From Deltaproteobacteria bacterium ADurb.Bin151 (GTDB lineage Bacteria > Desulfobacterota > Syntrophia > Syntrophales > Smithellaceae): a stretch of DNA of 64,000 nucleotides. The translations under genes were made by a program, and so were the position numbers. Each line of letters begins with the position of its first letter. Position 1 is the first letter of the stretch. Where the stretch lies: contig MWDG01000001.1 in NCBI GenBank assembly GCA_002070455.1, forward strand, positions 240 to 64,239. Direction: 5' to 3'. Below are positions 6,328 to 56,901 of this stretch, piece after piece. Below the pieces are notes generated by a model. It ran no database searches and had not been told where the DNA came from. It saw only the letters and a program-made list of their open reading frames with translations.

Positions 6328-8229
6328 ATGTCTGATTCGTTGAAATACAGGGATGTGTATGAGCAGTCGATCAACCAGCCTGATGTTTTCTGGGGCAGGG
6401 CAGCGGACGCTGTCCAGTGGACGAAAAAATGGGACAAGGTTCTTGATGACAGCAAAAAGCCCTTTTATAGCTGGTTTACAGGCGGCGAGCTCAACACTTG
6501 CTACAATGCGCTTGACTATCATGTGGAATCAGGCAGAAAGGATCAGGTTGCGATCATTTATGACAGCCCTGTTACAAATACAGTTAATAAAATTAGCTAC
6601 GGAGAGCTTCTCGACACGGTTTCCAGATTTGCGGGTGTGCTTTCCGGATTAGGCGTCACAAAAGGCGATACGGTGATCATTTATATGCCGATGATCCCGC
6701 AGGCCATGGTGGCGATGCTGGCCTGCGCCCGTATCGGTGCCGTGCATTCTGTTGTTTTCGGCGGTTTTGCCCCCAATGAGCTGGCTATCCGCATTGACGA
6801 TGCCAAGCCGAAAATCATCATATCCGCCTCCTGCGGCATCGAAGGGAAAAAAACGCTGGCATACAAACCGCTTATGGACGAAGCCATCAACATTGCCGCC
6901 CATAAACCTCAAAAGACTGTTATCTATCAGCGTCCGCAGGTGAAGGCCGATTTGATTACCGGCCGTGACCTGGACTGGGAGGAACTGATGAAAACAGCGA
7001 AGGCCGTTCCCTGTGTGCCTGTTGCCGCAACCGACCCCCTCTACATTCTTTATACATCGGGAACAACCGGCAAGCCCAAAGGTGTCATGCGGGACAATGG
7101 CGGCCATGCCGTCGCTTTGAAGTGGTCCATGAAGCACATCTACGACATCAAACCCGGGGAAGTTTTCTGGGCGGCCTCCGATGTCGGCTGGGTGGTAGGA
7201 CATTCCTATATTGTTTATGCGCCGCTGCTGTATGACTGTACGACAGTTATGTATGAGGGCAAGCCTGTCGGGACACCCGATCCCGGTGCGTTCTGGCGTG
7301 TCATTTCCCAGCATGGCGTATCCGTTCTGTTTACCGCGCCGACAGCTTTCCGTGCCATTAAAAAAGAAGACCCCAATGGAGATTACCTGAAGAAATATGA
7401 CATTTCATGCCTGCGATATCTTTTCCTCGCCGGCGAGCGGCTCGATCCCGACACGTATCACTGGGCCAGCGGCATGCTGAATATTCCTGTCGTTGATCAC
7501 TGGTGGCAGACTGAAACAGGCTGGCCGATTGCAGCAAACTGCATGGGAATTGAACAATTCCCGATCAAAGCGGGATCACCCACGAAACCCGTGCCCGGCT
7601 ATAATGTTCAGATCCAGGATATGGACGGCAAAACCCTTCCCGACGGTGAAGAAGGCGCAGTGGTGATCAAGCTGCCTCTTCCTCCCGGCTGTCTCCCCAC
7701 CCTCTGGAAAGATGACAAGCGATACCTGGAATACGTCACCGAAAGACCCGGATATTATGTGACCGGCGATGGCGGCCGTTTCGATCTGGACGGTTATCTT
7801 TACATCATGGGACGCATAGACGACGTAATCAATGTTGCGGGCCACCGGCTTTCCACAGGGGCGATGGAAGAAATTGTGTCCAGGCACAAGGATGTCGCTG
7901 AATGTGCCGTGCTGGGCGCAGACGATCAGCTCAAAGGTCAGGTCCCGGTGGGCTTTGTTGTTTTAAAAGCCGGTGTGGACCGGAAACCCGAGGAGATTGT
8001 TGCGGAACTGGTGCAAATGGTAAGGCAGGAACTTGGTGCACTGGCCTGCTTTAAGGAAGCTGCTGTGGTAAAGGCATTGCCCAAAACGAGATCCGGGAAA
8101 ATTCTGCGCTCCACGATGCGTAAAATCGTAGACGGCAAGGAATATGTTGTCCCTTCCACGATCGATGATCCTGCGGTCCTGCCGGCCATTGCGGAGTCGG
8201 CGAAAATGATCGGCTACGGAAAGAAGTGA
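6328..8229 (+). CDS. prpE: Propionate--CoA ligase (acetyl/propionyl-CoA synthetase family)
   Basis: AGGAGG 7 nt before ATG 6328. Near-collinear with enterobacterial PrpE by eye (YEQSINQPDVFWGRAA, YTSGTTGKPKGV, DVGWVVGHSYIVYAPLL, DDVINVAGHRLSTG, LPKTRSGKILR, STIDDPAVL). Confidence 0.85.
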   Translation: MSDSLKYRDVYEQSINQPDVFWGRAADAVQWTKKWDKVLDDSKKPFYSWFTGGELNTCYNALDYHVESGRKDQVAIIYDSPVTNTVNKISYGELLDTVSRFAGVLSGLGVTKGDTVIIYMPMIPQAMVAMLACARIGAVHSVVFGGFAPNELAIRIDDAKPKIIISASCGIEGKKTLAYKPLMDEAINIAAHKPQKTVIYQRPQVKADLITGRDLDWEELMKTAKAVPCVPVAATDPLYILYTSGTTGKPKGVMRDNGGHAVALKWSMKHIYDIKPGEVFWAASDVGWVVGHSYIVYAPLLYDCTTVMYEGKPVGTPDPGAFWRVISQHGVSVLFTAPTAFRAIKKEDPNGDYLKKYDISCLRYLFLAGERLDPDTYHWASGMLNIPVVDHWWQTETGWPIAANCMGIEQFPIKAGSPTKPVPGYNVQIQDMDGKTLPDGEEGAVVIKLPLPPGCLPTLWKDDKRYLEYVTERPGYYVTGDGGRFDLDGYLYIMGRIDDVINVAGHRLSTGAMEEIVSRHKDVAECAVLGADDQLKGQVPVGFVVLKAGVDRKPEEIVAELVQMVRQELGALACFKEAAVVKALPKTRSGKILRSTMRKIVDGKEYVVPSTIDDPAVLPAIAESAKMIGYGKK

Positions 8230-8230
8230 A

Positions 8231-8266
8231 ACAGGCTGGCAGGCTGTAGACTGTTAGGCTGTTAGG
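8231..8266 (+). repeat. Degenerate 7-8-nt tandem array (acaggctg gcaggctg tagactg ttaggctg ttagg) starting 1 nt after the prpE stop
   Basis: Direct reading. Units match those of the arrays at 14520-14621 and 54146-54180 (GGCTGTTA/TAGACT words). Confidence 0.6.
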
Positions 8267-8272
8267 AAAAAG

Positions 8273-8316
8273 AAGGCCGGCTGCAATAAATATTGAGCCG
8301 GCCTTTGTATTTTTTC
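8273..8316. terminator. Bidirectional rho-independent terminator between convergent prpE and lepB
   Basis: Stem aaggccggc (8273-8281) / gccggcctt (8297-8305). A T-run follows on the + strand (8310-8315) and a T-run follows on the - strand (complement of aaaaag 8267-8272). Confidence 0.75.
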
Positions 8317-8325
8317 AAAGCCTTA

Positions 8326-8955
8326 CTATTTGATCAGTTTGGCCAGACGGTCCCAGCGGACACGCTTTTCTTCTGAATCCCATGACCAGTAAAGAATGAA
8401 GGCCTTGCCCTGAACGTCCTTCAAATTGACAAAACCCCAGAAACGGCTGTCCAGACTGTGATCGCGATTGTCGCCCATCACAAAAAGAGAATTTTGCGGA
8501 ACGGTTAACGGCCCAAAGTTGTCCCGTGGCTGGACCTCGGCCGGATAAACCGTAGCATCGTCATACACGCCGAATGGATCTTCGAAAGGCTGGTCGTTGA
8601 TAAACAGCTTCTTGTTTTTCATTTCTATCTTGTCGCCGCCAATGCCGATCACCCGTTTGATAAAATCTTTGGATCGGTCTTCCGGGTAAATAAAAACAAC
8701 AACGTCGCCTCTTTTGGGGTCGGTCACAGGGATGATCGTTTTTCTGATCAAAGGAATTTTAACGCCATAAATAAATTTATTAACGAAAAGATGATCGCCG
8801 ATCAGCAGGGTTGGAATCATTGAACCGGATGGGATTTTAAAGGCCTGGACGATAAAAGATATAATGAAACCGGCAATCAAAACGGCCATCAGGACGGCTT
8901 CAACAAATTCTCTGAATTTTGATTTAATTTTTTTTGGCGGTAATTTCTTCCCCAT
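8326..8955 (-). CDS. lepB: Signal peptidase I
   Basis: GSMIPTLLIGDHLFVNKF, RGDVVVF and GDNRDHSLDSRFWG motifs. I use the internal ATG at 8955 (MGKKLPPKK...) because the longer track ORF overlaps the upstream flavodoxin gene. Confidence 0.9.
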   Translation of the reverse strand: MGKKLPPKKIKSKFREFVEAVLMAVLIAGFIISFIVQAFKIPSGSMIPTLLIGDHLFVNKFIYGVKIPLIRKTIIPVTDPKRGDVVVFIYPEDRSKDFIKRVIGIGGDKIEMKNKKLFINDQPFEDPFGVYDDATVYPAEVQPRDNFGPLTVPQNSLFVMGDNRDHSLDSRFWGFVNLKDVQGKAFILYWSWDSEEKRVRWDRLAKLIK

Positions 8956-9017
8956 AAACCTGAACCTCTTTTCAATGATTATTTGGATTGCAATCAACGG
9001 ACAGAACGGTCTTGTCT

Positions 9018-9473
9018 TCAGTAAATTTCCATGGCGCATCCGCCGGCTAGCGTTCCGCCGAGTTCACGGCATTTTTCCAGGATTTCCTCGGTGATTTTCC
9101 CTTTTGCGATAACAGGGGTGAAAACATTTTTAAATTTGTAACCCAGGGCGATGCGCTCGATAGCCCTGAGGGCCCCCGATCCGTCATTGCCGGCGCTGAT
9201 GAAAACGACATAGGGCTTGCGGAAAACTTTGTCCTGGGCGTCTCCGTATGTCCGGTCAAAAAAATCCTTGATCATGCCGGACATATAGCCAAAGTTTTCC
9301 GGCGTGCCGATTGCAAGACCGTCACAGGTTAAGAGGTCGTCAATGGTCGCATCTACAGCTTTTTTAAAATTGACCTCCACGCCGTCGATGACCTTTGCGC
9401 CTTCATAGACGGCTTCGGCCATTTGCCGGGTATGCCCGGTCTGGGAATGATAAACAACTAAAATTCGGGTCAT
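9018..9473 (-). CDS. Flavodoxin-family protein
   Basis: 151 aa. Starts MTRILVVYHSQTGHTRQMAEAV, a typical flavodoxin-fold FMN-binding N-terminus. Confidence 0.75.
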   Translation of the reverse strand: MTRILVVYHSQTGHTRQMAEAVYEGAKVIDGVEVNFKKAVDATIDDLLTCDGLAIGTPENFGYMSGMIKDFFDRTYGDAQDKVFRKPYVVFISAGNDGSGALRAIERIALGYKFKNVFTPVIAKGKITEEILEKCRELGGTLAGGCAMEIY

Positions 9474-9480
9474 AAAATAA

Positions 9481-9639
9481 AATGGGTAAAGGGTTAGGGG
9501 TCATAGGTTAGGGGTGATGGATAATGGGGAAGAGGTAATAGGTGAGGAGTGAGGGGAGAAGAGTCAGAAAAAAAGATTTTTCATCCCCTAACCCTTCACT
9601 ACTCACTCCTGACCCCTAACCCATAACCCCTGACCTTTC
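9481..9639. repeat. Phased heptamer array forming a long imperfect inverted repeat (G-rich arm 9481-9564, C-rich arm 9591-9639)
   Basis: Direct reading. Left arm: aatgggt aaagggt taggggt cataggt taggggt gatggat aatgggg aagaggt aataggt gaggagt gagggga gaagagt. Spacer: cagaaaaaaagatttttc. Right arm: acccttc actactc actcctg accccta acccata acccctg acctttc. The right arm abuts the tpiA stop codon (comp. 9641-9639). Confidence 0.8.
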
Positions 9640-10385
9640 TATGGCATTTTGGAAATAATGCCCAGGAAGCCATCGGCTTTCAGCGATGCCCCGCCGACCA
9701 ACGCTCCGTCGATATCTTCCATCGCGATCAACTCAGTGATATTATCTTTCGTCACACTGCCGCCATAGAGAATACGAACATCAGCGGCCGCACAGCCGTA
9801 TATTTCAACAAGAAGCCGGCGAATGAAGTCATGAACATCTTCAGCCTGTGGCGGTGTTGCGACCAAGCCCGTTCCGATTGCCCAGACCGGTTCATAGGCG
9901 ATGACGACGTCGTCCAGCTTGTCAATTCCGTCCAGCGCGCCGCGAACCTGACGGTTCACAACTGCCTCCGTGATCCCTTTGTTTCTTTCACCGTCCGTTT
10001 CGCCGACACAGACAATAGGCTTCAAACCGGTTGCCAGCGCTTTCTTCACTTTCAAATTAACGGTTTCTTCGCTTTCGACAAAATACTTGCGGCGCTCCGA
10101 ATGCCCGATGATGACGTACGTGCAACCTGCATCTTTCAGCATCAGCGGAGAAACTTCGCCGGTGTACGCTCCCTTGTCTTCGAAATACATGTTTTGAGCA
10201 GCAATCGCCACAGTTGATCCTGTTAGGATTTCTCTGACGCTCTGCAGAGCGGTAAACGGTGGAGCAACCACCACCTCTCCGTTTTTTAAACCGGCCGTTC
10301 CTTCTTTTACTGTGCGGGCCAGTGCGACGGATTCGTCAATGGTGTTATTCATCTTCCAGTTGCCGGCAACAATCCATTTTCTCAT
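9639..10385 (-). CDS. tpiA: Triosephosphate isomerase
   Basis: 248 aa. AGNWKMN, IIGHSERR and AYEPVWAIGTG motifs. Confidence 0.95.
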   Translation of the reverse strand: MRKWIVAGNWKMNNTIDESVALARTVKEGTAGLKNGEVVVAPPFTALQSVREILTGSTVAIAAQNMYFEDKGAYTGEVSPLMLKDAGCTYVIIGHSERRKYFVESEETVNLKVKKALATGLKPIVCVGETDGERNKGITEAVVNRQVRGALDGIDKLDDVVIAYEPVWAIGTGLVATPPQAEDVHDFIRRLLVEIYGCAAADVRILYGGSVTKDNITELIAMEDIDGALVGGASLKADGFLGIISKMP

Positions 10386-10399
10386 CGGCTTTCTCCCTG

Positions 10400-11575
10400 T
10401 TAACCGAGTGCGGCAACAGCCGGCAGTGTTTTGCCTTCAAGGAGTTCCAGAAACGCGCCGCCGCCTGTGGATATGTAAGATATTTTATCGCTCTTGCCGG
10501 TCTTGTGAACGGCCGTGTCCGTATCGCCGCCACCCACAATGGTCATCGCACCGGATTGCACAACCGCATCCACCAGTTTAAATGTTCCTGAGGAAAAAGG
10601 AGCAAGCTCAAACATGCCCAGCGGACCGTTCCAGACAATTGTTTTGGCCGTTTTCACCGCGTCTGAAAAAGCCGCAATGCTTGCAGGGCCGATGTCCAGA
10701 CCCATCCAGCCGTCCGGAATGTCCTTGACGGCAACAATATTTCTTTCCGCATCCGCGGACGGTTCCTGGGCGATAACGGTATCCACCGGCAGGAGAAACT
10801 GCACGTTTTGGGCTTTGGCTTTGTCCATGATTTTTCTGGCCAGATCCAGCATGTCCGTTTCACACAGGGACTTGCCGACGTTGAAACCCTGGGCTTTCAG
10901 AAAAGTGAAAGCCATGCCGCCTCCCACGATCAGGCGGTCCACTTTGTCGATGACATTTTCCAGAACTTTAATTTTGTCGGACACTTTGGCACCGCCGATA
11001 ATGGCGACGAGCGGCCTTGTAGGATTGCCCATGGCCTTGTTGAAATATTCAATTTCATTTTTCAGAAGAAAGCCCGCGGCGCAGACCGGTACATACTTTG
11101 TAATGGCCGTGTTGGATGCAGCCGCACGGTGCGACACGGCAAACGCATCGTTAACATATACGTCACACAGTTTTGCAAGTTCCTGTGCAAAGGCTTCATC
11201 ATTTTTATCTTCACCCGGATGAAAACGCAGGTTCTCAAGTAAAATCAAATCACCTGCTTTCATCGCGGTCACGGCTTTTTCCGCTTTTTCGCCGATGCAG
11301 TCGTCAATAAAGGGAACGTCTGTTTTCAGCATTCCGGCAAGAACCGGGGCGACCGGTCTTAAGGAGAACTCTTCAACTCTTTTGCCCTTGGGCCGTCCTA
11401 GGTGAGATGTGACAATCACCCGGGCGCCTTTATCCCTGATAAAATTAATCGTTGCCAGACTTGCTTTGACGCGGGTAACGTCAGTGACGTTGCCTGACTT
11501 GTCCATGGGCACATTGAAATCCACCCGTACCAATACCTTCTTTCCGCTTACATCGATCTGATCCAAGTACTTCAT
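10400..11575 (-). CDS. pgk: Phosphoglycerate kinase
   Basis: 391 aa. VRVDFNVP, SHLGRPKG and STGGGAFLE motifs. Confidence 0.95.
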   Translation of the reverse strand: MKYLDQIDVSGKKVLVRVDFNVPMDKSGNVTDVTRVKASLATINFIRDKGARVIVTSHLGRPKGKRVEEFSLRPVAPVLAGMLKTDVPFIDDCIGEKAEKAVTAMKAGDLILLENLRFHPGEDKNDEAFAQELAKLCDVYVNDAFAVSHRAAASNTAITKYVPVCAAGFLLKNEIEYFNKAMGNPTRPLVAIIGGAKVSDKIKVLENVIDKVDRLIVGGGMAFTFLKAQGFNVGKSLCETDMLDLARKIMDKAKAQNVQFLLPVDTVIAQEPSADAERNIVAVKDIPDGWMGLDIGPASIAAFSDAVKTAKTIVWNGPLGMFELAPFSSGTFKLVDAVVQSGAMTIVGGGDTDTAVHKTGKSDKISYISTGGGAFLELLEGKTLPAVAALG

Positions 11576-11602: not shown

Positions 11603-12601
11603 TTATTTCATGATAAAAGACAGGAGCTCCAGCATTCGATTGGAGAAGCCCCATTCGTTGTCATACCATGAAAGTATTTTTACCATTCTGCCGCCGATGA
11701 CGGTAGTGTTGGGCAGATCCACAATCGATGAATGGGGATTGCCGTTAAAATCTTTGGATACCAGTTCTTCTTCGGAGCAGCATAAAATGCCTTTCATTGC
11801 CCTTTGAGAATGTTCTTTCAGTTTTTCGTTGACTTCCTGCTTGCTTGTCTCGCGGGAAAGGGTTGCCACAAAATCCACCAGGGAAACATTGGGGGTGGGT
11901 ACGCGTATCGCCAGTCCGTCAAGCCTGCCTTTCATTTCCGGAATGACTTCCGCAATAGCGCGGGCCGCGCCGGTTGTTGTCGGAATCATAGAAAGGGCTG
12001 AAGCACGGGTGCGCCGCAGGTCCTTATGGGCTTCGTCAAGCACGACCTGGTCGTTGGTGAAGGAATGAATGGTCGTCATCAATCCGTATTCAACCCCGAA
12101 TTCCTCATGCAGAATTTTCACAATCGGAGCCAGGCAATTTGTGGTACAGGATCCCATGGAGATGATGTGATGTTTCGAACGGTCATAGTCCTGCGAATTA
12201 ACGCCGAAAACTACCGTGACATCCGCTCCCCTGGCGGGCGCGGAGATGACCACTTTTCTGGCGCCGGCTTTCAGGTGCTTTTCCGCCCCGTCCTTGTCCG
12301 TGAATCTTCCCGTACTTTCGAGCACAACATCCACGCCTAAATCTCTCCAAGGCAGTGTTTCCGGGTCTCTGACGGAAAAGGCTTTGATTTCGCGGCCGTC
12401 AACGGTGATTGCATTGGGAGTGACTTTCACTTCAGCATCAAGTGTTCCATGGGTAGAATCATATTTGAGAAGGTGAGCGATTGTTTTTGCATCGGCTAGA
12501 TCATTGACTGCCACGAATTCCACATCTTTGCTTCTGTAACCGGCGCGGAATACCAGCCGCCCGATTCTTCCGAATCCGTTTATTGCAATCTTTATAGGCA
12601 T
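11603..12601 (-). CDS. gap: Glyceraldehyde-3-phosphate dehydrogenase (type I)
   Basis: MPIKIAINGFGRIGR start at 12601, preceded by GAGGAGG. SCTTNCLAP active site. The longer track start (12658) adds 19 non-conserved residues. Confidence 0.95.
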   Translation of the reverse strand: MPIKIAINGFGRIGRLVFRAGYRSKDVEFVAVNDLADAKTIAHLLKYDSTHGTLDAEVKVTPNAITVDGREIKAFSVRDPETLPWRDLGVDVVLESTGRFTDKDGAEKHLKAGARKVVISAPARGADVTVVFGVNSQDYDRSKHHIISMGSCTTNCLAPIVKILHEEFGVEYGLMTTIHSFTNDQVVLDEAHKDLRRTRASALSMIPTTTGAARAIAEVIPEMKGRLDGLAIRVPTPNVSLVDFVATLSRETSKQEVNEKLKEHSQRAMKGILCCSEEELVSKDFNGNPHSSIVDLPNTTVIGGRMVKILSWYDNEWGFSNRMLELLSFIMK

Positions 12602-12885
12602 TTTTTCCTCCTCAATCCTTACTTTAAAAAGATTAAACAAAAGCCTGTGGGTTGTCAATCCATTTCTCTTTTTTAAGGGGAGTCTGTCGGGCCAACAGGC
12701 GACCTAAGGCATGATGGATGCAAGGGAAATTGTTATGTTGAAGTAAGAGAGCTTATTTGCTAGAACCCAATCATGTCCGGTCGTCCACAAAATATTTTTT
12801 GCGCCGGAATGCTGCAAAAAAATCGATGGAGTGTTCGTTTGAATGAGGTGAACATTTCAATAAAAATTCCGGGGTGCAAACATCA

Positions 12886-14127
12886 ATGAGCGATGATAAA
12901 TTATACATTGTGCTGATGGGGCTCCCCGCCAGGGGAAAGTCCACGCTGGCTTTGCGCCTGCTGGAGGCATTTCGCAAAGACCACATCCGGACAAGAATAT
13001 TCAACAACGGTAATCTGCGCCGAATTTACCGACCGCTTGACGAGACGTCCCGTGCCGAGTTTTATTCTCCCCGGAACTTCGCTGCCATAGCTCTGCGGGA
13101 TAAGTTTGCCCGCATGAATATGGAAAGGGCCAGAAGTTATCTTCGCAATTCAGGCCAGGTGGCTATTCTGGATGCGACCAACGCCAGCCGCCGCCGCAGG
13201 GAAACAATAGAGACTTATCTCAACGATCATCCTCTTCTTTTTATCGAGTGCATTAACGATGACCAGGAGATTCTGAATTTAAGCATTCTGGAAAAAACAA
13301 GGCTGCCGGAATTCAGTCATCTGGAATACAAAAAAGCGGAAGCGGAATTTTTAAAAAGAATTGATTATTATAAGTTGATTTACACTCCCTTGAAAATGGA
13401 AAGAAATTTTGTTTGCCTGGATTCGCTTCAGAACAGGATTATCAAAGAAAAACATACAGATCCTATTTATCTTTTCGCCCGACTGCGGGATTATCTGGTG
13501 ACGGACGAAGTAAAAAATCTGTTTTTGATCCGGCATACGCAGACAGAATATAATCTTGAAGACCGCATCGGAGGAAATCCGGGTTTGACCATAAAGGGCA
13601 AGGAGCAGGCTGAAGCGCTCGCGCAGTTTTTCTGCGCGAAAAAAATATCCTACATCTTTACCAGCAGCAAGATCAGGACCAAAAGGACGGCGGAAGCGAT
13701 TGCATCGAAACAGGATTATTGCCGGATCATAGCGCTCAAAGAGTTTGATGAAATCAATGCCGGCATCTGTGAAGGCATGACCTATGCGGAGATTGAAAAA
13801 AAGATGCCTGATGTTTTCCGCGCCCGCGAAGCCAACAAATATGCTTATGCCTATCCGGAAGGCGAAAGTTATGCGACGATGAAGCCGAGGATTGAGGAAG
13901 GAATCAAAAAAGCTTTCTTCCTGAACCGGCACTCCCACAATATTATGATTATCGGCCATCAGGCAGTCAACCGTTTGATTCTGTCGCATTTTCTTTACCG
14001 GCGGGAAGTGGACGTCCCTTACATTTACATTCCGCAGGATCGTTTCTATCATATTGTTTCCATGCAGAACAAAAAACTTTTTGAATTAAAACGTTATGAT
14101 AAATATTTTTATAAAAAAACAGCATAA
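12886..14127 (+). CDS. Bifunctional 6-phosphofructo-2-kinase / fructose-2,6-bisphosphatase-like protein (PFKFB architecture)
   Basis: N-terminal half: IVLMGLPARGKSTLALRL, FNNGNLRRIY, GQVAILDATNASRRRR, FIECINDDQEIL (6PF2K signature blocks). C-terminal half: LIRHTQTEYNLEDRIGGNPGLT, YPEGESY, IMIIGHQAVNRLILSHFL (histidine-phosphatase blocks). Confidence 0.8.
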   Translation: MSDDKLYIVLMGLPARGKSTLALRLLEAFRKDHIRTRIFNNGNLRRIYRPLDETSRAEFYSPRNFAAIALRDKFARMNMERARSYLRNSGQVAILDATNASRRRRETIETYLNDHPLLFIECINDDQEILNLSILEKTRLPEFSHLEYKKAEAEFLKRIDYYKLIYTPLKMERNFVCLDSLQNRIIKEKHTDPIYLFARLRDYLVTDEVKNLFLIRHTQTEYNLEDRIGGNPGLTIKGKEQAEALAQFFCAKKISYIFTSSKIRTKRTAEAIASKQDYCRIIALKEFDEINAGICEGMTYAEIEKKMPDVFRAREANKYAYAYPEGESYATMKPRIEEGIKKAFFLNRHSHNIMIIGHQAVNRLILSHFLYRREVDVPYIYIPQDRFYHIVSMQNKKLFELKRYDKYFYKKTA

Positions 14128-14141
14128 GGAGGCTGAATCCT

Positions 14142-14522
14142 ATGAGCGGCATTAAAATGAATATGGATGAATTCAGCAGGCTGGCAAAGAATCCCGATGA
14201 AAAGCCTTTTGTCATGTTGAATCTGCTCAAGTTCAAAGGTGCACAGGGGCAGGCTTCTTACACCCGCTACATGAAAGAGGCCGGGGAATTTGTTGCAGGC
14301 GTCGGAGGAAAAGTTCTGTATCTTGGAAAACCTGATGAACTGCTCAACGGCAATGAAAAATGGGATCTGCTCATGCTGGTGCATTATCCATCCCGCAAAG
14401 CATTTCTTTCCATGGCCAACAATCCCGATTATCTTAAAGTACATCGTTTCCGAGAAGAGGGGGTCGAACGGGCTGTCCTTTATGCGACCGATCCGATCAG
14501 GTTCAGGGATATAGCCATTTAG
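14142..14522 (+). CDS. DUF1330-family protein (dimeric alpha/beta-barrel-like)
   Basis: 126 aa. FVMLNLLKFKG...LMLVHYPSRKAFLSMANNPDY pattern resembles DUF1330. Confidence 0.6.
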   Translation: MSGIKMNMDEFSRLAKNPDEKPFVMLNLLKFKGAQGQASYTRYMKEAGEFVAGVGGKVLYLGKPDELLNGNEKWDLLMLVHYPSRKAFLSMANNPDYLKVHRFREEGVERAVLYATDPIRFRDIAI

Positions 14523-15522: not shown

Positions 15523-16293
15523 TTGATGAAACAATTTTCACTTACACCGGCGGCCGGTAAAAGACTTATCGGCAAAGGCATGGCCGGCCATCCGGAGGTG
15601 CTCTCCGCGCTGAAAGGCAAAACGATTGTCATTATTGCCGGTACGACCAACGGTTACGTGGCCGAGGAGTTGCTTGCCTTAATCGGGCAGGCGGATGAAT
15701 TCCGGCGGGAACGTTTTTTCCGTGGCATTGTTTTACCTCCTTCCCAACCGACGTTGCCCTCCGGCAGGTTTCCGGATGAAAGCGGTTTTCCGGGCGATGT
15801 AGTGATTCAAAAAGGGATCTGGCAAAAAGGCAAAACCATTTTTGACGCAGTGGATGAACTGAAAGAGGGCGATGTGATTTTAAAAGGGGCCAATGCGGTT
15901 GATCTGGAGTCCAGACGGGCTGCAATTCTGATTGGACACCCGCAGGCGGGAACCATCGGTGTGTCGCTTCCTGCATATTACGGCAGGCGTGTGCGGCTGA
16001 TTATTCCGGTTGGCCTGGAAAAACGCGTTTACGGAAATCTGGACGATCTGGCCTGCGAGATCAACAGGCCCGGAGCACACGGGCCCAGACTGCTGCCCGT
16101 TCCCGGTGAAGTTGTGACGGAGCTGGAAGCCATTGGTTTATTGACTGGCGCAAAAGCAAAAATAATTGCTGCAGGCGGGGTTTCCGGTGCGGAAGGCAGT
16201 GTCTGGCTGTCTGTGTGCGGCAAACCGGATCAGGAAGAAAGGGCCGCGGTGCTGCTTCAGTCTTTGGTTTCAGAGCCGGCATTTAAAATATAG
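15523..16293 (+). CDS. Conserved-looking protein of unknown function
   Basis: 256-aa ORF with a coding-like, Gly-rich composition ([30 protein letters not shown]). I cannot place it in a family from sequence alone. Confidence 0.5.
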
Positions 16294-27130: not shown

Positions 27131-27682
27131 TTATGTCTTCTCAAAATGGTGATAGTCTTTAGGCTGTTCAAAGTTTCCTCCCCAGTGCCATCCCCGCTGG
27201 AGAAATTCACGAACAACGGGATGATCTGCGGTGAACGTGCCGCGGTTTGCCGGACGATAAACGGCTCCGGCGGGTGCGATCAGTCCGGTGGGATAAATCA
27301 CGGGATTCTGTAAGGGATTGATGTCCACGGCGCGCCCGAAAGAATGGAGAGACAGTTTGTTGGTGTCAGCGATGACACGGAAGTTGAATGCGGAAGAATT
27401 ATTGTCCGCCATGGAATCACCGTCTTCCCAGCGGTAAGAAACAATGGGGATCACTTTGCCAACTGGAAATTTCAGTCTGTCGATTAGTTCAAATATTTCG
27501 TAGATGTCGTCTTCAAGCCTTGCATCAACAAGGATCTGCCCCTGATGACGCAGGCCGTCAAAAGAATAGTAATACACGTCAATCATGGACAGAGAGTCTA
27601 TGATTTCAAGAGGTGCCGTGGAACCTTCAATGGCTGCAGCAAAACTCATAGCGCTGTCGATAATGATATCATCATCCGGCAT
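27131..27682 (-). CDS. Peptidase M15 (LAS-type, VanX / L-Ala-D-Glu peptidase-like) protein without a signal peptide
   Basis: 183 aa. SLHSFGRAVDINP (H-x-x-G-x-A-x-D) and WHWGGNFEQPKDYHHFE motifs. The N-terminus [10 protein letters not shown] is not a leader. Its start codon overlaps the upstream stop by 1 nt (TAATG). Confidence 0.7.
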   Translation of the reverse strand: MPDDDIIIDSAMSFAAAIEGSTAPLEIIDSLSMIDVYYYSFDGLRHQGQILVDARLEDDIYEIFELIDRLKFPVGKVIPIVSYRWEDGDSMADNNSSAFNFRVIADTNKLSLHSFGRAVDINPLQNPVIYPTGLIAPAGAVYRPANRGTFTADHPVVREFLQRGWHWGGNFEQPKDYHHFEKT

Positions 27683-30093
27683 TATGTAAACTCCTTGAGT
27701 ATTATCCCGAGCATTTCCTCGTTGAGCGAGACTTCGTTATAGATTGCGCTCAGAGTGCTGCAGGAAAGATGTTCAAAATCCGACAGCCGCGGTGTGATCA
27801 CAACACCGGCCATGTCAATGGCGCCCGGGGAAATAAATATATTCTTTTTGCCCTTGGCAAAGTAAGCGTCGGGACGATGCTTCCGGCGCAGGAAAATGGT
27901 CAGTCGCCAGGTCTTTCCGGCGTAAGAACAAATGACATTCACCGGTGGTTCATCCCTTTTTGCCAGGATTTTCCGCGCAGCTTTTACGAAACGGTTGAAT
28001 TGCTTCATCAAAGCGGCCGCATTGCCGGATTCCATAACAATGACAGCACGATCAAATTGTTTTCCTGCTGTGATTTGAACGGAAGAGGCGGCCTTGGTCA
28101 GGGGGAGTTTGTTGAATCGGGCCAGAAACGGCAGGACGTTGGATGGAATCATCTGGAAATGAGCGTGATCGGGCGCGGAAGCTCCGCAAAACGGACCGTT
28201 GTAGAAAACGATATAATCCGGCCCAACATCGGCGGAAAGCTTCAGGAGCCGATCCAGAGATGAGACAATGTTCTGTGGCCGGTGCCGGAGGGTGACAATC
28301 GTAAAGTGCCGGTTAAAGATCGGGGCTGGATTACACAGGATAAGAAAATCATCCCTGTATAATATGGCTTGTTGGGCGTCAGGCAGGTTTTTCCGGCATA
28401 GAAAACAGGGGCGTTTTTTTATGGACTCCCTGTCCACCGCAGCGCCGCCGCTTACCGCACGTGCGGGATTGTATTGCAGCGTGATGGTATATCTGCCGCA
28501 TGAGAGCTGTCTGGTCTTTATGTTTTTCAGGTCCCGGCAGGCAGCCGCAAACTCGGGCCATGTTTCTTTCTGGCGATGATCAAGATCCCGGCAGAGAGCA
28601 GGTAGCGAGATGTTTCCCGATCCCGTGAAACTGGCAGAAACGGGATTCAGCTGAATGGACCGGGACGCCGTCTGAATTGGCCGGCCTTCGTTGATCAGCT
28701 GGCGGGCGCGCAGTTCCATCGTTCGTAGCCTGTCTTTGTAATAGTCATTTTGGTTTTGCCGTTCGACGGAAAGACCTGCGTCGGTATTATCTGCCCACCG
28801 ACGGCACAGATAGAGGCTTTCGTAAATTCTGCCGACTTTGAACTCCCGTGTTATCTGCAGGGCCACCGCGTAATCCTCCCCATAACTCACATTGGGGAAG
28901 CCGAACCGGCGCAGGACATTTGTATTAAAAGCCCTCGGTGCGCCCATTCCGTTGATCCGAAGCAGATTGTTATGGCCGTTTTGGGAGGTCCATTCCCGGT
29001 GATCAATGAGCCCGGGCGGAATCTCTCTCTGCCGTTGGTCTACCAGAGTATAGGAGCCGACGGCCATTGCGTATTTTCCCCTGCGCAGAGTATTGATCAT
29101 GGTTTGCAGAGATTTTGGTGAACTGTAAACGTCGTCGGAATCCAGTTGAACCGTGTACCGTCCGCAGTGGGGTGAATAAATCGCTTCATTCCAGCAACCG
29201 CCAATGCCCAGGTCGCGTCGTTTGGGTACCAGATGCCGCAGGTTGGGATGTTTTGCCGAAAATTTTTTTATAATTATTGCTGTCTTGTCCGTCGAATGGT
29301 TGTCAACGACAATGACATTAAAAGGGAAATTCGTTTTCTGACAGAGGGCACTTTGAAGCGCATCGGCAATCGTTTTTTCGCGGTTGAGCACCGGAATGAC
29401 AATGCTGGCTTCCCATGGAAAGTCCGCCGATTCCTGAGTCGCTTTTTTTGTTCGTGCCGGTAAATACGCGCCGATACGTTTCAAATGCTGCGTCGCAATT
29501 TTTTCAAACTTTTTCTGGCGGGCAAAATTTTCTTTTGCGACATAGTGAAAATGTGTTTCTGACTTTCCATTTTTTTTCTTCTGCTGTTTTTTGATGGACG
29601 CTGTATAAAGGAATTCCGGCAGATGGAGAATGACCGAGTCAAGAGAAATTTTGAGTCGCAAATCATAAAGAGCGGTGTCCGGATCGGATCCGGGCGCACC
29701 GTATTTTTTCATGGCGGCTTGAATTGCATTGGAGGAAAGAATGAAAAAATGACCAAAGTTGAAATCATCGCGGATCGATCCCGGTTGGCAGTCGTTAAGC
29801 GGATGGGCAGCGCGGCCATTGGCAGTGGTTGTAAGAAAGTCCGGGTAAACGATCCCTGCTCCGGTCTCCCGGGCAACGGTAAAGAGTCTTTGCAGGGAGT
29901 GCTCCGGGCATAGCACGTCCACACCGGAATCAACGGCCAGCAGATAACCAGAAGAAAGTTTACGGAAGAATGAAGATGGCTGTCGTGTTTCTTTGATGAT
30001 GGATGATTCAGACGGCCAGCGCTCCGCGGCCTGTTTTTCATCCGAGGCGCAAAAGAGAAAAAATCGCCCTGATTGATAAATCGAAGGTTTCAT
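27682..30093 (-). CDS. Three-domain fusion: degenerate GT-A-like N-domain, glycosyltransferase family 2 domain, and a DUF4922/GalT-type HIT (HxHxQ) nucleotidyl-transferase/phosphorylase-like C-domain
   Basis: 803 aa. GT2: [23 protein letters not shown]...[12 protein letters not shown]...QLDSDDVY. C-terminal: [15 protein letters not shown]...[11 protein letters not shown]...[15 protein letters not shown]-terminal ~190 aa contain YDLRLKIS but no clear DxD. Confidence 0.7.
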
Positions 30094-48467: not shown

Positions 48468-50306
48468 ATGTGGAAGCAGAAAATCGTTTCTCCCGAAAAC
48501 ATGCTGGCTAAAATTGATCCGGGCATGAGCATCTTTCTGGGAACGGGAATGGCCGAACCCCGGACGTTGGTCAAGCACCTCATGGAATCCGATCAGTCCA
48601 ACCTGCAGGACCTGGAACTGATCCAGCTGGTCAGCCTGGGCGATGCCGTGGCCATTGATGAACGTTATGCCCGAAAATTTCGGTTAAAAACATTTTTCTC
48701 CGGATGGCTTGCATCCGATGCCATTAGCCAGGGGCGGGTTGACCTGATTCCCAGCCGTTTTTCGCGCGTTGCCTGGCTTTTTAAAACCGGAGTGATCAAT
48801 ATCGATGTCGCCTTTATCCAGGTTACTCCTCCCGATGAAAACGGCTATGCTTACCTGGTCGGGGCGTCTGTAGAAAAACAGGCCATGGAAATGGCTAAGA
48901 TCGTTGTCGGTGAAATCAATTCCCAGATTCCCCGGACAATGGGCGATACCCTGGTGAACATGGACGATTTCAATTACCTGGTTGAGGCAACCGAACCTCC
49001 ATATTATGTAGGCCGCTGGCCGCTTCAGGAGGTTTATCTGAAAATCGCTGCCAATGTGGCTTCCGTTATCCAGGATGGCTGCTGCATATCCTACGGGATC
49101 GGGCCACTTTTTGAAGCACTGGCCAAAGCGTTGACGATGAAAAGAAATCTGGGCGTGCACTCGCCTTTCTTTACGGATGCGCTGATGGACCTGGTCAAGA
49201 GCGGAGCCGTGACCAACCGCTATAAAAATATTTATCGTGGAAAGTCATGCGCCTCCTATGTCATTGGTACCAAAGAGTTGATGCAATGGCTCGATTTGAA
49301 TCCACTGGTGGAATTCCAGCCGCAGGATATCGTGATGGATCCCCGGGTCATTGGTCTAAATGATAATATGGTAGCCATTTTTCCGGCGCGAAAAGTCGAC
49401 CTGACAGGCGATATCGCGCTGCACTCCGGCAAGGGCAATGTTACTGCCGGACCGGGAAACGTACAGGAACTTTTTATGGGCGCGGCGCTATCCAAAAACG
49501 GCCGGAATATATTTGCCCTGCCCAGCCGTAACCGCAAAGGGCAGCCCAATATCAAGATATCCCTGGATAAATATCCTTTTCAATTCACCAATCGTGAGTC
49601 GATGGATGTTGTTGTAACAGAATATGGAGTGGCTTATCTGATGGGAAAGACACTGCGTGAGAGGGCACAGGCGCTCATTGAAATTGCGCATCCGGATGAC
49701 CGTCCGGAACTGGTCCGGCTGGCCAAGGAAGAAAAGATGATTTACGCTGATCAGATTTTTTATGCTGAATCCGGCCACCTTTATCCGGATAAAATAGCCT
49801 GTTCTCATAAATTCAAAGATGGTCTGGTGGTTCGTTTCCGGGCGATCAAACCGTCTGATGAAGAGGAAATGCGCCGTTTATTTTACCGGTTTTCGGATCA
49901 GGCGGTTTATTACCGCTACTTCAGTCCGATCAAAACCATGCCCCACAAAAAAATGCAGGAATATGTCAACGTGGATTATCGCTGCACCATGTCCCTTGTG
50001 GCCATCATTGACGAGTCCGGGGTTGAGAAAATCATCGGTGAGGCACGCTATGTCAGAACTAAAGGGGAACCTTTTGCCGACACCGCCTTTATTGTCGATG
50101 AACAATACCAGGGCATGGGCATATCAACCTATCTTTTCAATCTGCTGATCCGTGCGGCGAGAGAAGAGGGCGTTGCCGGACTGAAGGCCGATGTTCTGGA
50201 AAACAACCGGGCCATGTTGAAGGTTTACGAAAAAGCAATCTACCCCGTACAGACTGTTCTCTCCGGAGGAGTTTATAAAATTACGATTCCTTTTGATGCA
50301 AAATAA
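48468..50306 (+). CDS. Fusion of an acetyl-CoA hydrolase/transferase-family domain with a Pat-type GNAT acetyltransferase domain
   Basis: 612 aa. The N-terminal ~440 aa resemble 4-hydroxybutyrate/acetyl-CoA transferases. The C-terminal part, VRFRAIKPSDEEEMRRLFYRFSDQAVYYRYFSP...EARYVR...AFIVDEQYQGMGISTYLFNLLI...VLENNRAML, matches the GNAT domain of Pat/YfiQ-type protein acetyltransferases. Confidence 0.75.
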   Translation: MWKQKIVSPENMLAKIDPGMSIFLGTGMAEPRTLVKHLMESDQSNLQDLELIQLVSLGDAVAIDERYARKFRLKTFFSGWLASDAISQGRVDLIPSRFSRVAWLFKTGVINIDVAFIQVTPPDENGYAYLVGASVEKQAMEMAKIVVGEINSQIPRTMGDTLVNMDDFNYLVEATEPPYYVGRWPLQEVYLKIAANVASVIQDGCCISYGIGPLFEALAKALTMKRNLGVHSPFFTDALMDLVKSGAVTNRYKNIYRGKSCASYVIGTKELMQWLDLNPLVEFQPQDIVMDPRVIGLNDNMVAIFPARKVDLTGDIALHSGKGNVTAGPGNVQELFMGAALSKNGRNIFALPSRNRKGQPNIKISLDKYPFQFTNRESMDVVVTEYGVAYLMGKTLRERAQALIEIAHPDDRPELVRLAKEEKMIYADQIFYAESGHLYPDKIACSHKFKDGLVVRFRAIKPSDEEEMRRLFYRFSDQAVYYRYFSPIKTMPHKKMQEYVNVDYRCTMSLVAIIDESGVEKIIGEARYVRTKGEPFADTAFIVDEQYQGMGISTYLFNLLIRAAREEGVAGLKADVLENNRAMLKVYEKAIYPVQTVLSGGVYKITIPFDAK

Positions 50307-52784: not shown

Positions 52785-54014
52785 TCAACCTGTTGGCGGC
52801 AGAGCCTGGGCGGCTTTTTGAACAATGGCATCCACAATGCCGTTTAACCATGTGATGCCCTTTCCCGAAACCTCTGCCGGCAGACGCTGGATGGTTGATA
52901 TGTAATTCGCACTTTTATCTTTCGCGTTTTTTTCAAAGTCGTTTAGAAATTCCTCCCGGGCTATTTCTGTTGCGGTCATGATCTCCGGTATTTTCCCCGT
53001 GAAAAGTTCTTCAAGCCATCCGATCTTTGATAGCAATTCCTTTCTTTTGCTGCTTTCTTCGACGGGTGATATGGCGGCTTTTGCGGTCATCGCCTTTAAT
53101 CTTTTCAGGCGCTCCTTTCTGGCCGACAGAAGCTGCTCCAGAAGAGCTTCATAGATCAGAGTTCCGAATTCCATGGTTTCCAGAAACGGTTTTCTTACCT
53201 GTGAATACCACGACTCAAGGGCCGCAAGGTTTGCAAGATAAAGAAAATTATTTTTGATGATACGACCAAAATTAGGGTATGCCGCGGGAATATAATCTTT
53301 GGTTCCATTTGCGGGGGATTTTTCAAATATCATTTGATTGCCCCCGGGATAATCATGCCGCAGGATGGATCCTGCTGCCACGACATTGCCGAAACCCAGT
53401 CTCACCGGTCCGATGATTCCTCCCTGTCCGCCCAGAAAGATGGGGGGTTGGTTCAACATGACCCCCCGGGGGACATCCCCCAGCAGCGAGGGGGTTGTTT
53501 TGTCGGCATCCGGCGTGAAATTAAAATGGATGTAGGAGCTTCCCACTTCAGAATGATTACTGCGGCTGGTGCCGCCGGCCATGAAGCAGTCGCAGAAGTT
53601 GATCAGGCTTCCCAGCGTTACAAAGGGGAAAAGAATGGTCTGCTTTAATCCGACGGTGTGCGCGCCGCTGGCTTCTTCTTCCAGGATGCATCCCTCCCGG
53701 ACATGTGCTCCCCTACCCATGTTTGCTTTTTCCAGAAATACGGATTGGCTGAAAAAGCCTCCTTTTAACTCAACTTTCGGGCCGAGCCGGCAGTTATCAA
53801 TGGTTGCCGGACCTTCGTAGCCCAGCTGGCAGCCGGATGATATAACGGTTTTACTTCCATAAATCCGACAACCCGGATAAATCCGGACTCCTTTGCCGGA
53901 AATCTGATCGATATTGACATCGTCACCAATATCAATGGTTCCCGGATTGGGAATTTCTGCACCTTTTTCAATCAGCTGTTTTATTTTTTCATAGGATTTT
54001 TGTTTTAAATCCAT
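52785..54014 (-). CDS. Left-handed beta-helix (hexapeptide-repeat) transferase-like protein, GlmU C-domain-like, with a helical C-terminal extension
   Basis: 409 aa. Imperfect hexapeptide periodicity through residues ~25-230 (IDIGDDVNI, VRIYPGCRIYG, TIDNCRLGPKV, GFGNVVAAGSIL). First gene of the glmM/nagB-like operon. Confidence 0.55.
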   Translation of the reverse strand: MDLKQKSYEKIKQLIEKGAEIPNPGTIDIGDDVNIDQISGKGVRIYPGCRIYGSKTVISSGCQLGYEGPATIDNCRLGPKVELKGGFFSQSVFLEKANMGRGAHVREGCILEEEASGAHTVGLKQTILFPFVTLGSLINFCDCFMAGGTSRSNHSEVGSSYIHFNFTPDADKTTPSLLGDVPRGVMLNQPPIFLGGQGGIIGPVRLGFGNVVAAGSILRHDYPGGNQMIFEKSPANGTKDYIPAAYPNFGRIIKNNFLYLANLAALESWYSQVRKPFLETMEFGTLIYEALLEQLLSARKERLKRLKAMTAKAAISPVEESSKRKELLSKIGWLEELFTGKIPEIMTATEIAREEFLNDFEKNAKDKSANYISTIQRLPAEVSGKGITWLNGIVDAIVQKAAQALPPTG

Positions 54015-54185: not shown

Positions 54186-55562
<1,377 letters not shown>

Positions 55563-55607: not shown

Positions 55608-56627
55608 TTATATTTTTATTCCTTCAATATCCTGCATTTTCTCATACTCCATCACGGTGGACATGGCCTTGTTGTCCACATCAAAGCCTGATTCACAGGC
55701 CGCGGCTATCGGATTTAAGCCGCCGATCAGAATCATTCCGATCTTGTTCATGTCCACATGGGTCTGGCACACGGGATGTCCCGTGTTACCGATAGACAAA
55801 ACACCGTGAATGCCGGCTCTGTCGAAATCGTCGATCACATGATTCACGAGGTTTCTGCTTAATGCAGGGATTTCACGGAAATTGGCCAGGATTTTTCCTT
55901 CGCCTTCTGCAGCCACCTGTGAAACGGATGTCATTTTGCCGCGAATGAAGATTTCCGACGGATCAAGGGAAGAACCGGCGTAATGGATCAATTCAACGAA
56001 TCTTAAAATTTCCCCCTTTCTCATCTGGAGAATGCCACCGAACTTGGAGTCAATGGGGATACCTTGTTTGAGCAGTACACCATTGATCACAATACTGCAA
56101 ACGGTAGCCAGGCCAATTTTGCCTTCGGGTACCAGGATATCGCCAAGGGTTTTTCCGGGCAGACCCACTGCCACGCGGGAACTGACAGCCAGTTTTTTTG
56201 CGAAAACAGGCTTCATGGCCTTCAGCGCCCTGGAAAATTGTTCCTTTGGGAAGAAAGAGATGTTTACTGGCACCATGCCGCGTTTCTTTTTGACGTCAAA
56301 AGTCGTCTTGAAGGACAGAACATCAATGCGTGAAATGGAAAGACCGATTTTATCCTGTACCCGGGCGTCGGATATTTCACTTTCCCCCTTGTCGGTAATC
56401 ATACGGCCGTCGCGCCGTCCCACCAGTTTGGTAAGACCGCGCTCGTCCATAATCTTGAGATGATATCTCACCGTTCGTTCGCTGAGCTGTATATTTTGTT
56501 CAAGCATCCGGCGCGCAATCACACGGGCTCCGAGCGGCTCCGCGCTTTCGTGGAGTATTTTCAGGATCAGGATTACCCTGCGTTCCAAATCTTCTGGTTT
56601 ATAAAACTCTTTCATATTTTTCTTCAT
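55608..56627 (-). CDS. nrpR: NrpR-like nitrogen regulatory repressor homologue (winged HTH plus one DUF128/NrpR regulatory domain)
   Basis: LERRVILILKILHESAEPLGARVIARRMLEQNIQLSERTVRYHLKIMDERGLT matches the archaeal NrpR N-terminal wHTH pattern, followed by ~250 aa of DUF128-like sequence. The start is uncertain (ATG 56627 or 56615, TTG 56666). Confidence 0.7.
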   Translation of the reverse strand: MKKNMKEFYKPEDLERRVILILKILHESAEPLGARVIARRMLEQNIQLSERTVRYHLKIMDERGLTKLVGRRDGRMITDKGESEISDARVQDKIGLSISRIDVLSFKTTFDVKKKRGMVPVNISFFPKEQFSRALKAMKPVFAKKLAVSSRVAVGLPGKTLGDILVPEGKIGLATVCSIVINGVLLKQGIPIDSKFGGILQMRKGEILRFVELIHYAGSSLDPSEIFIRGKMTSVSQVAAEGEGKILANFREIPALSRNLVNHVIDDFDRAGIHGVLSIGNTGHPVCQTHVDMNKIGMILIGGLNPIAAACESGFDVDNKAMSTVMEYEKMQDIEGIKI

Positions 56628-56901
56628 ACGGCAATCGGCAGCCGTTTGCCGTATGCTTACTGACAAACCTTTTTTTTGTCAAATAAAAAATACTATATTC
56701 TGTTGTCTTTATGATAAGTAATTGATATAATAGATAAATAATTAAATATGCGCGAAATCTGCGCGTCGGTTTATGTACAAAATACTTTCAGGCAAGCGAA
56801 AAGGATATTTGGGCAACAGGCCGTTGAGATGCCATGTGTCTTCCAATATACGGGTCAGACAGGCGCTGACCGTTTGAACAGGGCATAGTGTGAGAAAAGA
56901 T

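Follow-up and report, generated by a model that had tools for sequence, protein, structure and literature searches.

Textbooks present fructose-2,6-bisphosphate (Fru-2,6-P2) as a regulator of glycolysis and gluconeogenesis that is confined to eukaryotes. In the animal enzymes PFKFB1-4 (structures 5htk, 1k6m, 2axn and 1bif), a P-loop 6-phosphofructo-2-kinase (6PF2K) domain precedes a histidine phosphatase domain, and in trypanosomatids the signal acts on pyruvate kinase (PYK), which Fru-2,6-P2 activates with a Ka0.5 of 0.01-0.03 µM (PMC4448766). The relevant passage of PMC9721465 names Desulfovibrio desulfuricans as an exception to the eukaryotic restriction, citing Rider 2004, and cites Michels & Rigden 2006 for the effects of the regulator. 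Here we analyse a gene at positions 12886-14127 of a 64,000-nucleotide stretch of contig MWDG01000001.1 (the window in what follows) from Deltaproteobacteria bacterium ADurb.Bin151, a syntrophic, Smithella-type member of the Smithellaceae (Syntrophales, Desulfobacterota). Its product is probably a genuine minimal-core bifunctional 6-phosphofructo-2-kinase/fructose-2,6-bisphosphatase (PFK-2/FBPase-2) that would set a switch between glycolysis and gluconeogenesis. The exception cited for Desulfovibrio we take most likely to be strain G20, formerly Desulfovibrio desulfuricans G20 and now Oleidesulfovibrio alaskensis G20; the 2004 article of Rider et al. and the 2006 article of Michels and Rigden are both said to treat the G20 protein as the bacterial exception. 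The existence of a bacterial PFKFB homologue was itself noticed about 20 years ago in Desulfovibrio, and many database records are already annotated as such. What is new here is the breadth of the clade, the full conservation of the active sites, the selection on both domains, and the pyruvate kinase (pyk) and malQ gene contexts that point to a possible target.

Domain architecture and active sites

The plus-strand open reading frame (ORF) spans 12874..14127 and opens at GTG, with an in-frame ATG at 12886 that gives a 413-aa protein. The 413-aa translation matches database protein P0001, which comes from the same bacterium, at 100 % identity, and the N-termini of homologues read MSDDKLY or MSGEKLY, matching the product of ATG 12886. 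The identity to P0001 and the shared start MS(D/G)(D/E)KLY therefore support 12886 as the start codon. The 6PF2K profile of Pfam (PF01591) matches residues 2-207 with 127 bits against a cut-off of 27 and is covered over positions 10-211 of its 223, and the His_Phos_1 profile (PF00300) follows collinearly on the same polypeptide over residues 212-375, with 124 bits against a cut-off of 21.7. A phmmer search of PDB chains aligned human PFKFB2 (5htk) in a single collinear stretch (query 4-390, chain 37-423) at E = 4.1e-60, a similarity well outside chance expectation; the hits to PFKFB1, PFKFB3 and the rat testis enzyme scored E = 1e-52 to 1e-57. The kinase motifs run GLPARGKS (residues 12-19), FNNGNLRR (39-46), ILDATNASRRRR (94-105) and FIECINDDQEIL (119-130), followed in the phosphatase half by RHTQTEYN (216-223), GG (229-230), YPEGESY (323-329) and GHQAVNR (357-363). 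The original prediction for this gene, made from the letters alone, had quoted these motifs in this order and had called the product a eukaryote-type bifunctional PFK-2/FBPase-2 homologue. Every quoted block was found in the translation, and the identification is borne out by the Pfam matches to both domains and the collinear match to PFKFB2. ORF 12886-14127 is a full-length, collinear homologue of PFK-2/FBPase-2. An antisense ORF lying over the gene (13351-14052, 233 aa) was dismissed, as homology and the ratio of nonsynonymous to synonymous substitution rates (dN/dS, or omega) both back coding on the plus strand.

Positions known from the rat and human enzymes were mapped onto the query through its HMMER alignment with full-length human PFKFB2 (5htk). 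In the kinase domain, PFKFB2 residues K51, R78, R79, R102, D128, T130, R136, K172, R193 and Y197 are all identical in the query, whose corresponding residues are the Walker A stretch G12..K18-S19, R45/R46, R71, the Walker B residue D96, T98, R104, K137, R158 and Y162. PFKFB2 T52 is replaced by serine (S19), which still makes a valid Walker A motif, and Cys158 by asparagine. Conservation was assessed across 120 Smithellaceae homologues at 69-100 % identity. The Walker A motif GxxxxGK[ST], the Walker B aspartate (equivalent to D128) and the Lys172 equivalent are present and invariant in this sample. The equivalents of the fructose-6-phosphate (Fru-6-P) site, R45, R46, R71, T98, R104, R158 and Y162, are identical to those of PFKFB2, and T98 is the only kinase position to vary among the 120 homologues (T in 107/120). 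All 11 mapped kinase positions are thus kept, with T to S as the only exchange, and a lack of conservation on proper alignment, which the original prediction had named as the outcome that would count against it, did not occur.

The phosphatase domain shows the same pattern. PFKFB2 residues R256, H257, N263, G269, R306, E326, Y337, R351, K355, Y366, H391, Q392 and R396 are identical in the query, which carries R216-H217-T218, N223, R264, E289, Y300, R314, K318, Y329, H358-Q359 and R363, and the only differences at mapped positions are G258 to T and E259 to Q. The 12 phosphatase positions counted as catalytic or substrate-contacting are all unchanged. The catalytic residues R216-H217, E289 and H358 are invariant in all 120 homologues, and the equivalents of the Fru-2,6-P2 site (N223, R264, Y300, R314, K318, Y329, Q359 and R363) are invariant in 119-120 of them, with a single R363M. 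Across both domains the query signature, KSRRRDTRKRY / RH-T-QNREYRKYHQR, agrees with the one canonical among 136 diverse members of the family except at the glycine of the RHG motif. Changes next to the active sites appear to be limited to RHG to RH(T/A) and the Walker A T to S.

The two domains are conserved to the same degree among the 120 homologues (mean column identity 0.835 for the kinase and 0.832 for the phosphatase). The comparison of the window with L001, its closest unsaturated relative (dS 0.26-0.33), gives an omega of 0.12 in the kinase domain and of 0.06 in the phosphatase domain; the remaining pairs, in all of which dS is saturated, give 0.08-0.13 and 0.03-0.06, respectively. 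Both domains are under strong purifying selection. Because both halves are equally conserved and each is under purifying selection, both are likely to be needed and functional, and because the contact residues are conserved under selection, the substrates are likely to be Fru-6-P and Fru-2,6-P2 rather than others.

A monomer model was built with AlphaFold2 from an alignment of 37 sequences (pLDDT 90.6, pTM 0.85). In a Foldseek comparison with the PDB, the top 26 matches are all PFKFB1-4, the best E-value being 2.5e-34 and each alignment covering about 419 columns; the phosphatase domain of the model fits that of rat liver FBPase-2 (1tip/1fbt) with a TMt of 0.91 and a root-mean-square deviation (rmsd) of 2.0 Å. 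The model predicts for both domains the fold of the solved PFKFB structures; the orientation of the domains relative to one another is not reproduced.

The query thus shares with animal PFKFB1-4, at 30-32 % identity, the order of the two domains, the Walker A and B motifs, the K172 equivalent, the mapped Fru-6-P contacts, the H/E/H triad and the Fru-2,6-P2 contacts, the Walker A T to S excepted. Unlike the animal enzymes it is a bare catalytic core, in which the alignment runs from residue 4 to about 390-404. The animal tails that bear the phosphorylation sites, about 35 aa at the N-terminus and about 50-80 aa at the C-terminus, are absent. Further differences are RHT for RHG, the Walker A and Cys158 exchanges given above, and several short indels.

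Distribution and descent of the family

Orthologues are present in 19 species-level Smithellaceae/Syntrophaceae genomes at 70-93 % identity, one closed chromosome of 4.78 Mb included. A HMMER scan covering 1.84 billion 50 %-identity representatives returned 249 clusters at E <= 1e-30. A handful of these measure about 405 aa and share 41-68 % identity with the query; for the rest, most of which have a eukaryote-like length, identity is 30-37 %. Among the ten nearest of the 30-37 % clusters, which we examined, four are eukaryotic (an MMETSP transcript, Trichuris, the choanoflagellate Diaphanoeca and Nutomonas). Desulfovibrio contributes 916 of the clusters formed at 90 % that score E <= 1e-20, including one that occurs on 1000 contigs or more, and further homologues occur in O. 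alaskensis G20 (P0436), Desulfonatronum, Fundidesulfovibrio, Desulfobacteraceae and metagenome-assembled genomes (MAGs) of Thermodesulfobacteriota. The statement in the original prediction that bacterial homologues are rare fails in this lineage, given the 19 Smithellaceae genomes, the Desulfovibrio clusters and the further Desulfobacterota.

In neighbour-joining (NJ) trees, whether from full-length, kinase-only or phosphatase-only alignments, Smithellaceae, Desulfovibrio and two unassigned sequences group together with a bootstrap of 100/100. The members of this Desulfobacterota clade, to which the G20 protein P0436 belongs, share the query's domain pair and a length of about 400-420 aa, and are 41-47 % identical to one another. 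Desulfovibrio members are 42-49 % identical to the query and have an identical catalytic signature. Identity of the query to all eukaryotic sequences is about 29-35 %, with no specific donor. Outside the clade, homologues of prokaryotic length (about 400-415 aa) are found in Myxococcota (P0140/P0272) and in a marine-metagenome group (P0282/P0284/P0244), one protein of which is labelled Methylobacterium. One member of the Desulfobacterota-type clade, P0124, comes from a MAG labelled as a Nanobdellota (DPANN) archaeon, a label that may be a binning error. The GC content, third-position GC (GC3) and codon usage of the PFKFB gene are typical of the window. We conclude that the gene is an old, vertically maintained and long-resident member of a Desulfobacterota family.

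The clade is not nested in any eukaryotic group and lies outside all other sequences in the midpoint-rooted NJ tree, a placement that is equally expected from long-branch attraction after an ancient eukaryote-to-bacterium transfer. Of the horizontal transfer that the original prediction proposed to examine by phylogeny, the monophyly of the clade could be established and the direction could not, as a midpoint-rooted NJ tree cannot root; we rejected any reading of direction from this tree. A bolder proposal is that the PFK-2/FBPase-2 fusion is an old deltaproteobacterial resident, represented by the Desulfobacterota clade and by the separate Myxococcota and marine groups, that it serves bacterial Fru-2,6-P2 signalling, possibly acting on pyruvate kinase, and that the eukaryotic regulator could derive from it. 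We hold this combination to be quite doubtful.

Gene neighbourhood

Coordinates for the window and for informative related loci are collected in Table 1. The gap gene starts at an ATG preceded by a GGAGGA ribosome-binding site, and the divergence of gap and PFKFB across a shared 284-bp region, as originally described, is exact. This region is 88 % conserved with L001 and L013. It contains no match to the sigma-70 consensus and only short, weak inverted repeats; its RNA folding is no better than that of shuffled sequences (z = -0.56), and no Rfam family was found in the whole 64-kb window, intergenic region included. The gap-pgk-tpiA genes are divergent from PFKFB in at least 12 Smithellaceae loci. 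Identity of gap is 88-98 % in 12 related loci; L006 and L014 match in part, at the ends of their contigs. Direct pairing of gap with PFKFB is seen in the window, L001, L013 and apparently L014, and is a derived state of this sub-lineage.

Table 1. Features of the window and of related PFKFB loci
Locus	Feature	Coordinates	Strand	Remarks
Window	PFK-2/FBPase-2 (PFKFB-type) coding sequence	12886..14127 (stop codon included)	+	413 aa; alternative GTG 12874
Window	6-phosphofructo-2-kinase domain, N-terminal (residues 2-207)	12889..13506	+	Pfam PF01591, 8.9e-37
Window	Fructose-2,6-bisphosphatase (histidine phosphatase) domain, C-terminal (residues 212-404)	13519..14097	+	Pfam PF00300, 7e-36
Window	gap/PFKFB divergent intergenic region	12602..12885	.	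284 bp; presumed shared promoter region
Window	gap (glyceraldehyde-3-phosphate dehydrogenase)	11603..12601	-	Pfam Gp_dh_N/Gp_dh_C; first gene of gap-pgk-tpiA operon
Window	pgk (phosphoglycerate kinase)	10400..11575	-	Pfam PGK 3.5e-162; syntenic in related loci
Window	tpiA (triosephosphate isomerase)	9639..10385	-	Pfam TIM 6.2e-95; syntenic in related loci
Window	DUF1330 gene	14142..14522	+	Pfam PF07045
L010	Pyruvate kinase, then FMN-reductase-like gene	7887-9293; 9368-9937	same as PFKFB	
L011	Pyruvate kinase, then FMN-reductase-like gene	7985-9421; 9426-10004	same as PFKFB	
L019, Deltaproteobacteria MAG RBG_16_44_11	Pyruvate phosphate dikinase (PPDK)			Nearby; PFKFB orthologue 70 % identical
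L025, O. alaskensis G20-type	GH77 4-alpha-glucanotransferase (malQ)	8470-9984	same as PFKFB	Ends 16 bp upstream of PFKFB
L020-L022, Desulfovibrio	cdaA-ybbR-glmM			Downstream of PFKFB
L023-L024, Desulfovibrio	ackA-pta-PFOR			Adjacent, convergent with PFKFB
L027, Desulfonatronum	PGM/PMM gene			About 3 kb off

In 12 of the 19 Smithellaceae loci (L002, L004-L007, L010, L011, L012 and L015-L018), PFKFB is directly preceded by a co-oriented gene for a 468-aa pyruvate kinase; most of these loci have a 189-aa FMN-reductase/flavodoxin-like gene between the two. In L011, the stop codon of this intervening gene overlaps the ATG of PFKFB. Both genes are missing at the PFKFB site in the window, L001 and L013. 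The nearest solved relatives of the Smithellaceae pyruvate kinase are those of Staphylococcus aureus, Geobacillus, Mycobacterium tuberculosis and Escherichia coli (PykF), and it is a standard bacterial enzyme.

On the other side, the DUF1330 gene starts 14 bp past the PFKFB stop codon and directly follows PFKFB in 10 of the 19 related loci. No terminator-like site was found between the two genes; they are probably co-transcribed, and a functional link is possible. The contexts differ between lineages: gap-pgk-tpiA and pyk in Smithellaceae, malQ in the G20-type locus, and cdaA-ybbR-glmM or ackA-pta-PFOR in other Desulfovibrio. The placement of malQ suggests an operon tie to storage-glucan catabolism in Oleidesulfovibrio. 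The theme common to the neighbourhoods across lineages is hexose-phosphate and lower-glycolysis metabolism.

Several further genes were noted around PFKFB and elsewhere in the window. The signal peptidase I gene lepB lies directly upstream of PFKFB in Desulfovibrio L023 (3320-3964) and, in the same neighbourhood of the window, at 8326-9039, beyond tpiA and a flavodoxin gene; this proximity may be left over from an ancestral synteny common to both. A 256-aa ORF at 15523-16293 (+) gives no Pfam match at E <= 1e-4 and is syntenic past PFKFB-DUF1330-DUF2147-cupin in several relatives at 69-88 % identity. Farther away, an ORF at 55608-56666 (-) carries NrpR regulatory domains (NRD1_2, 1e-81) and HTH_12 and lies directly upstream of a glutamate dehydrogenase gene (54186-55547, -). 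NrpR is familiar chiefly as a nitrogen repressor of archaea, and the protein encoded here appears to be a bacterial homologue beside a nitrogen-assimilation gene. The window also contains an unusual 803-aa fusion of a GT2 glycosyltransferase with DUF4922 and an Ap4A-phosphorylase-N-like region (27682-30093, -), a 612-aa protein in which the N- and C-domains of acetyl-CoA hydrolase/transferase are fused to a C-terminal GNAT acetyltransferase (48468-50306, +), and a 409-aa ORF with no Pfam match at E <= 1e-4 (52785-54014, -).

Proposed function and alternative readings

By homology, the P-loop kinase domain would bind ATP with K18/S19 of Walker A, D96 of Walker B and K137, hold beta-D-fructose-6-phosphate by R45/R46, R71, T98, R104, R158 and Y162, and move the gamma-phosphate to O-2 to form Fru-2,6-P2. 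The phosphatase domain would hold this product by R216, N223, R264, Y300, R314, K318, Y329, Q359 and R363 and remove its 2-phosphate via a phosphorylated His217, with E289 as the proton donor and H358 as the second catalytic histidine. The level of Fru-2,6-P2 would then be set by the balance between kinase and phosphatase activity. Because the phospho-regulatory N- and C-terminal tails are absent, control would have to rest on metabolite levels and on a transcriptional link to lower-glycolysis genes, made by the presumed divergent promoter region shared with gap-pgk-tpiA here and by co-linearity with pyruvate kinase in most relatives. Domain identity, residue conservation, purifying selection on the two domains and gene context are observed, and all that the eukaryotic enzyme requires for the two reactions is present; both enzyme activities, a cellular pool of Fru-2,6-P2, a target for it and a physiological switch are what we infer.

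Smithellaceae grow on propionate, fatty acids or alkanes, so that the pathway is mainly gluconeogenic, and Desulfovibrio stores and re-uses polyglucose. In such hosts Fru-2,6-P2 could act as an allosteric flux signal between gluconeogenesis from fatty acids, propionate or alkanes and the glycolysis of stored glucan. The candidate receptors are pyruvate kinase, an ATP- or pyrophosphate (PPi)-dependent phosphofructokinase (PFK) and a fructose bisphosphatase (FBPase). Pyruvate kinase is a candidate because it is the operon partner in relatives and because trypanosomatid PYK offers a precedent. The parallel is only an analogy: the Smithellaceae PFKFB gene lies just downstream of pyruvate kinase in the 12 loci listed above and not in the window, and the bacterial pyruvate kinase appears closest to bacterial enzymes, not to the trypanosomatid one.

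Several observations weigh against a bifunctional enzyme with this role. Pfam scans, which took in about 45 window ORFs, and tblastn searches with the E. coli PfkA and Fbp sequences turned up no PFK, PPi-PFK or FBPase, either in the 64-kb window or among the 19 related loci. The window PFKFB gene has no adjoining pyruvate kinase. The roles assigned to individual residues are taken over from the literature on the rat and human enzymes. Superposition of the whole model on PFKFB crystal structures gives a TM score of 0.48 and an rmsd of about 16 Å, while the domains fit singly; the inter-domain arrangement may differ from that of PFKFB, or the model may be unreliable. Full-text literature searches found no biochemistry, metabolomics or genetics of any bacterial PFKFB. 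This agrees with the description of bacterial homologues as uncharacterised in the original prediction, which had added that a family both common and already characterised in this lineage would undo it: the family has proved common, and no bacterial biochemistry appeared in the literature searched. A last point concerns the glycine of the RHG motif, which is threonine in 102 of the 120 Smithellaceae homologues and alanine in the other 18; the RHT first read from the letters is confirmed by the mapping to PFKFB2 and by this alignment.

This motif is the basis of the main rival reading, in which the enzyme is effectively monofunctional or biased. The change from RHG to RH(T/A) would weaken the bisphosphatase and leave mainly a PFK-2, as in PFKFB3; alternatively, the kinase would be vestigial and the protein mainly a phosphatase. 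RHG is kept in nearly all family members outside the Smithellaceae, and monofunctional derivatives reportedly occur among eukaryotic family members, as the 2006 article of Michels and Rigden is said to describe. Known monofunctional forms of the PFKFB family carry substitutions or deletions at catalytic or substrate sites, whereas in the query the catalytic and substrate-binding residues are unsubstituted in both domains. The glycine is frequent in the family but not catalytic. The phosphatase is under the stronger purifying selection of the two domains (omega 0.03-0.06 against 0.08-0.13). The contrast between Smithellaceae RH(T/A) and Desulfovibrio RHG falls within one clade, whose Desulfovibrio members retain RHG, and an eukaryote-length member (P0239) likewise has RHA. 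We regard a monofunctional or biased enzyme as unlikely.

A second rival holds that the protein acts on another phospho-sugar, or is a generic kinase/phosphatase, as many database names imply. NCBI names many members 6-phosphofructo-2-kinase/fructose-2,6-bisphosphatase; others are inconsistently named (P0001, P0436, P0515 and P0061 among them), the exact protein, P0001, as "Phosphoserine phosphatase 1", the O. alaskensis G20 protein as "Phosphoglycerate mutase", and further relatives as "Adenosylcobalamin/alpha-ribazole phosphatase", "6-phosphofructokinase", "broad specificity phosphatase PhoE/predicted kinase" or "nucleoside/nucleotide kinase". No NCBIfam model exists for the PFKFB family, and the phosphatase half gives sub-threshold matches to TIGR03162 CobC (94.7 against a cut-off of 162.9), NF009994 PSP1 (73.4/277), NF045917 PspA (70.4/350) and NF002901 GpmB (58.8/261). 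Some Desulfovibrio loci, moreover, adjoin the amino-sugar gene glmM and not glycolytic genes. The four NCBIfam scores are far under their equivalog cut-offs and confined to residues ~210-397, and an identity as Phosphoserine phosphatase 1, CobC or GpmB was rejected on these grounds. The kinase half is specifically 6PF2K: the generic P-loop-kinase profile AAA_33 covers part of the same stretch and scores much lower (33 bits, cut-off 27). Every mapped contact residue for Fru-6-P and Fru-2,6-P2 is conserved, which also makes less likely the different sugar bisphosphate that the original prediction had offered as its alternative. We consider another substrate very unlikely.

Contamination with eukaryotic DNA, or a gene only just acquired from a eukaryote and still lacking an established role, would suit a family that is otherwise overwhelmingly eukaryotic and whose nearest matches outside the clade are protists, a nematode and a choanoflagellate. 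This third reading is in effect already refuted by bacterial synteny that is conserved across 19 Smithellaceae genomes, closed chromosome included, by the window-typical base composition and codon usage, by the fully supported and internally divergent clade with no specific eukaryotic donor, and by the strong purifying selection.

The reading we prefer, a bifunctional PFK-2/FBPase-2, places an intact and strongly selected homologue of the Fru-2,6-P2 synthase/hydrolase, conserved in Smithellaceae and in sulfate reducers, amid glycolytic genes (gap-pgk-tpiA, pyruvate kinase and malQ), which makes bacterial Fru-2,6-P2 signalling directly testable. O. alaskensis G20 and Desulfovibrio are genetically tractable. 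The hosts matter for methanogenic degradation of hydrocarbons and propionate and for gut sulfide, and a new control point of their carbon flux would be useful. The prokaryotic clades described here also bear on the origin of the eukaryotic regulator.

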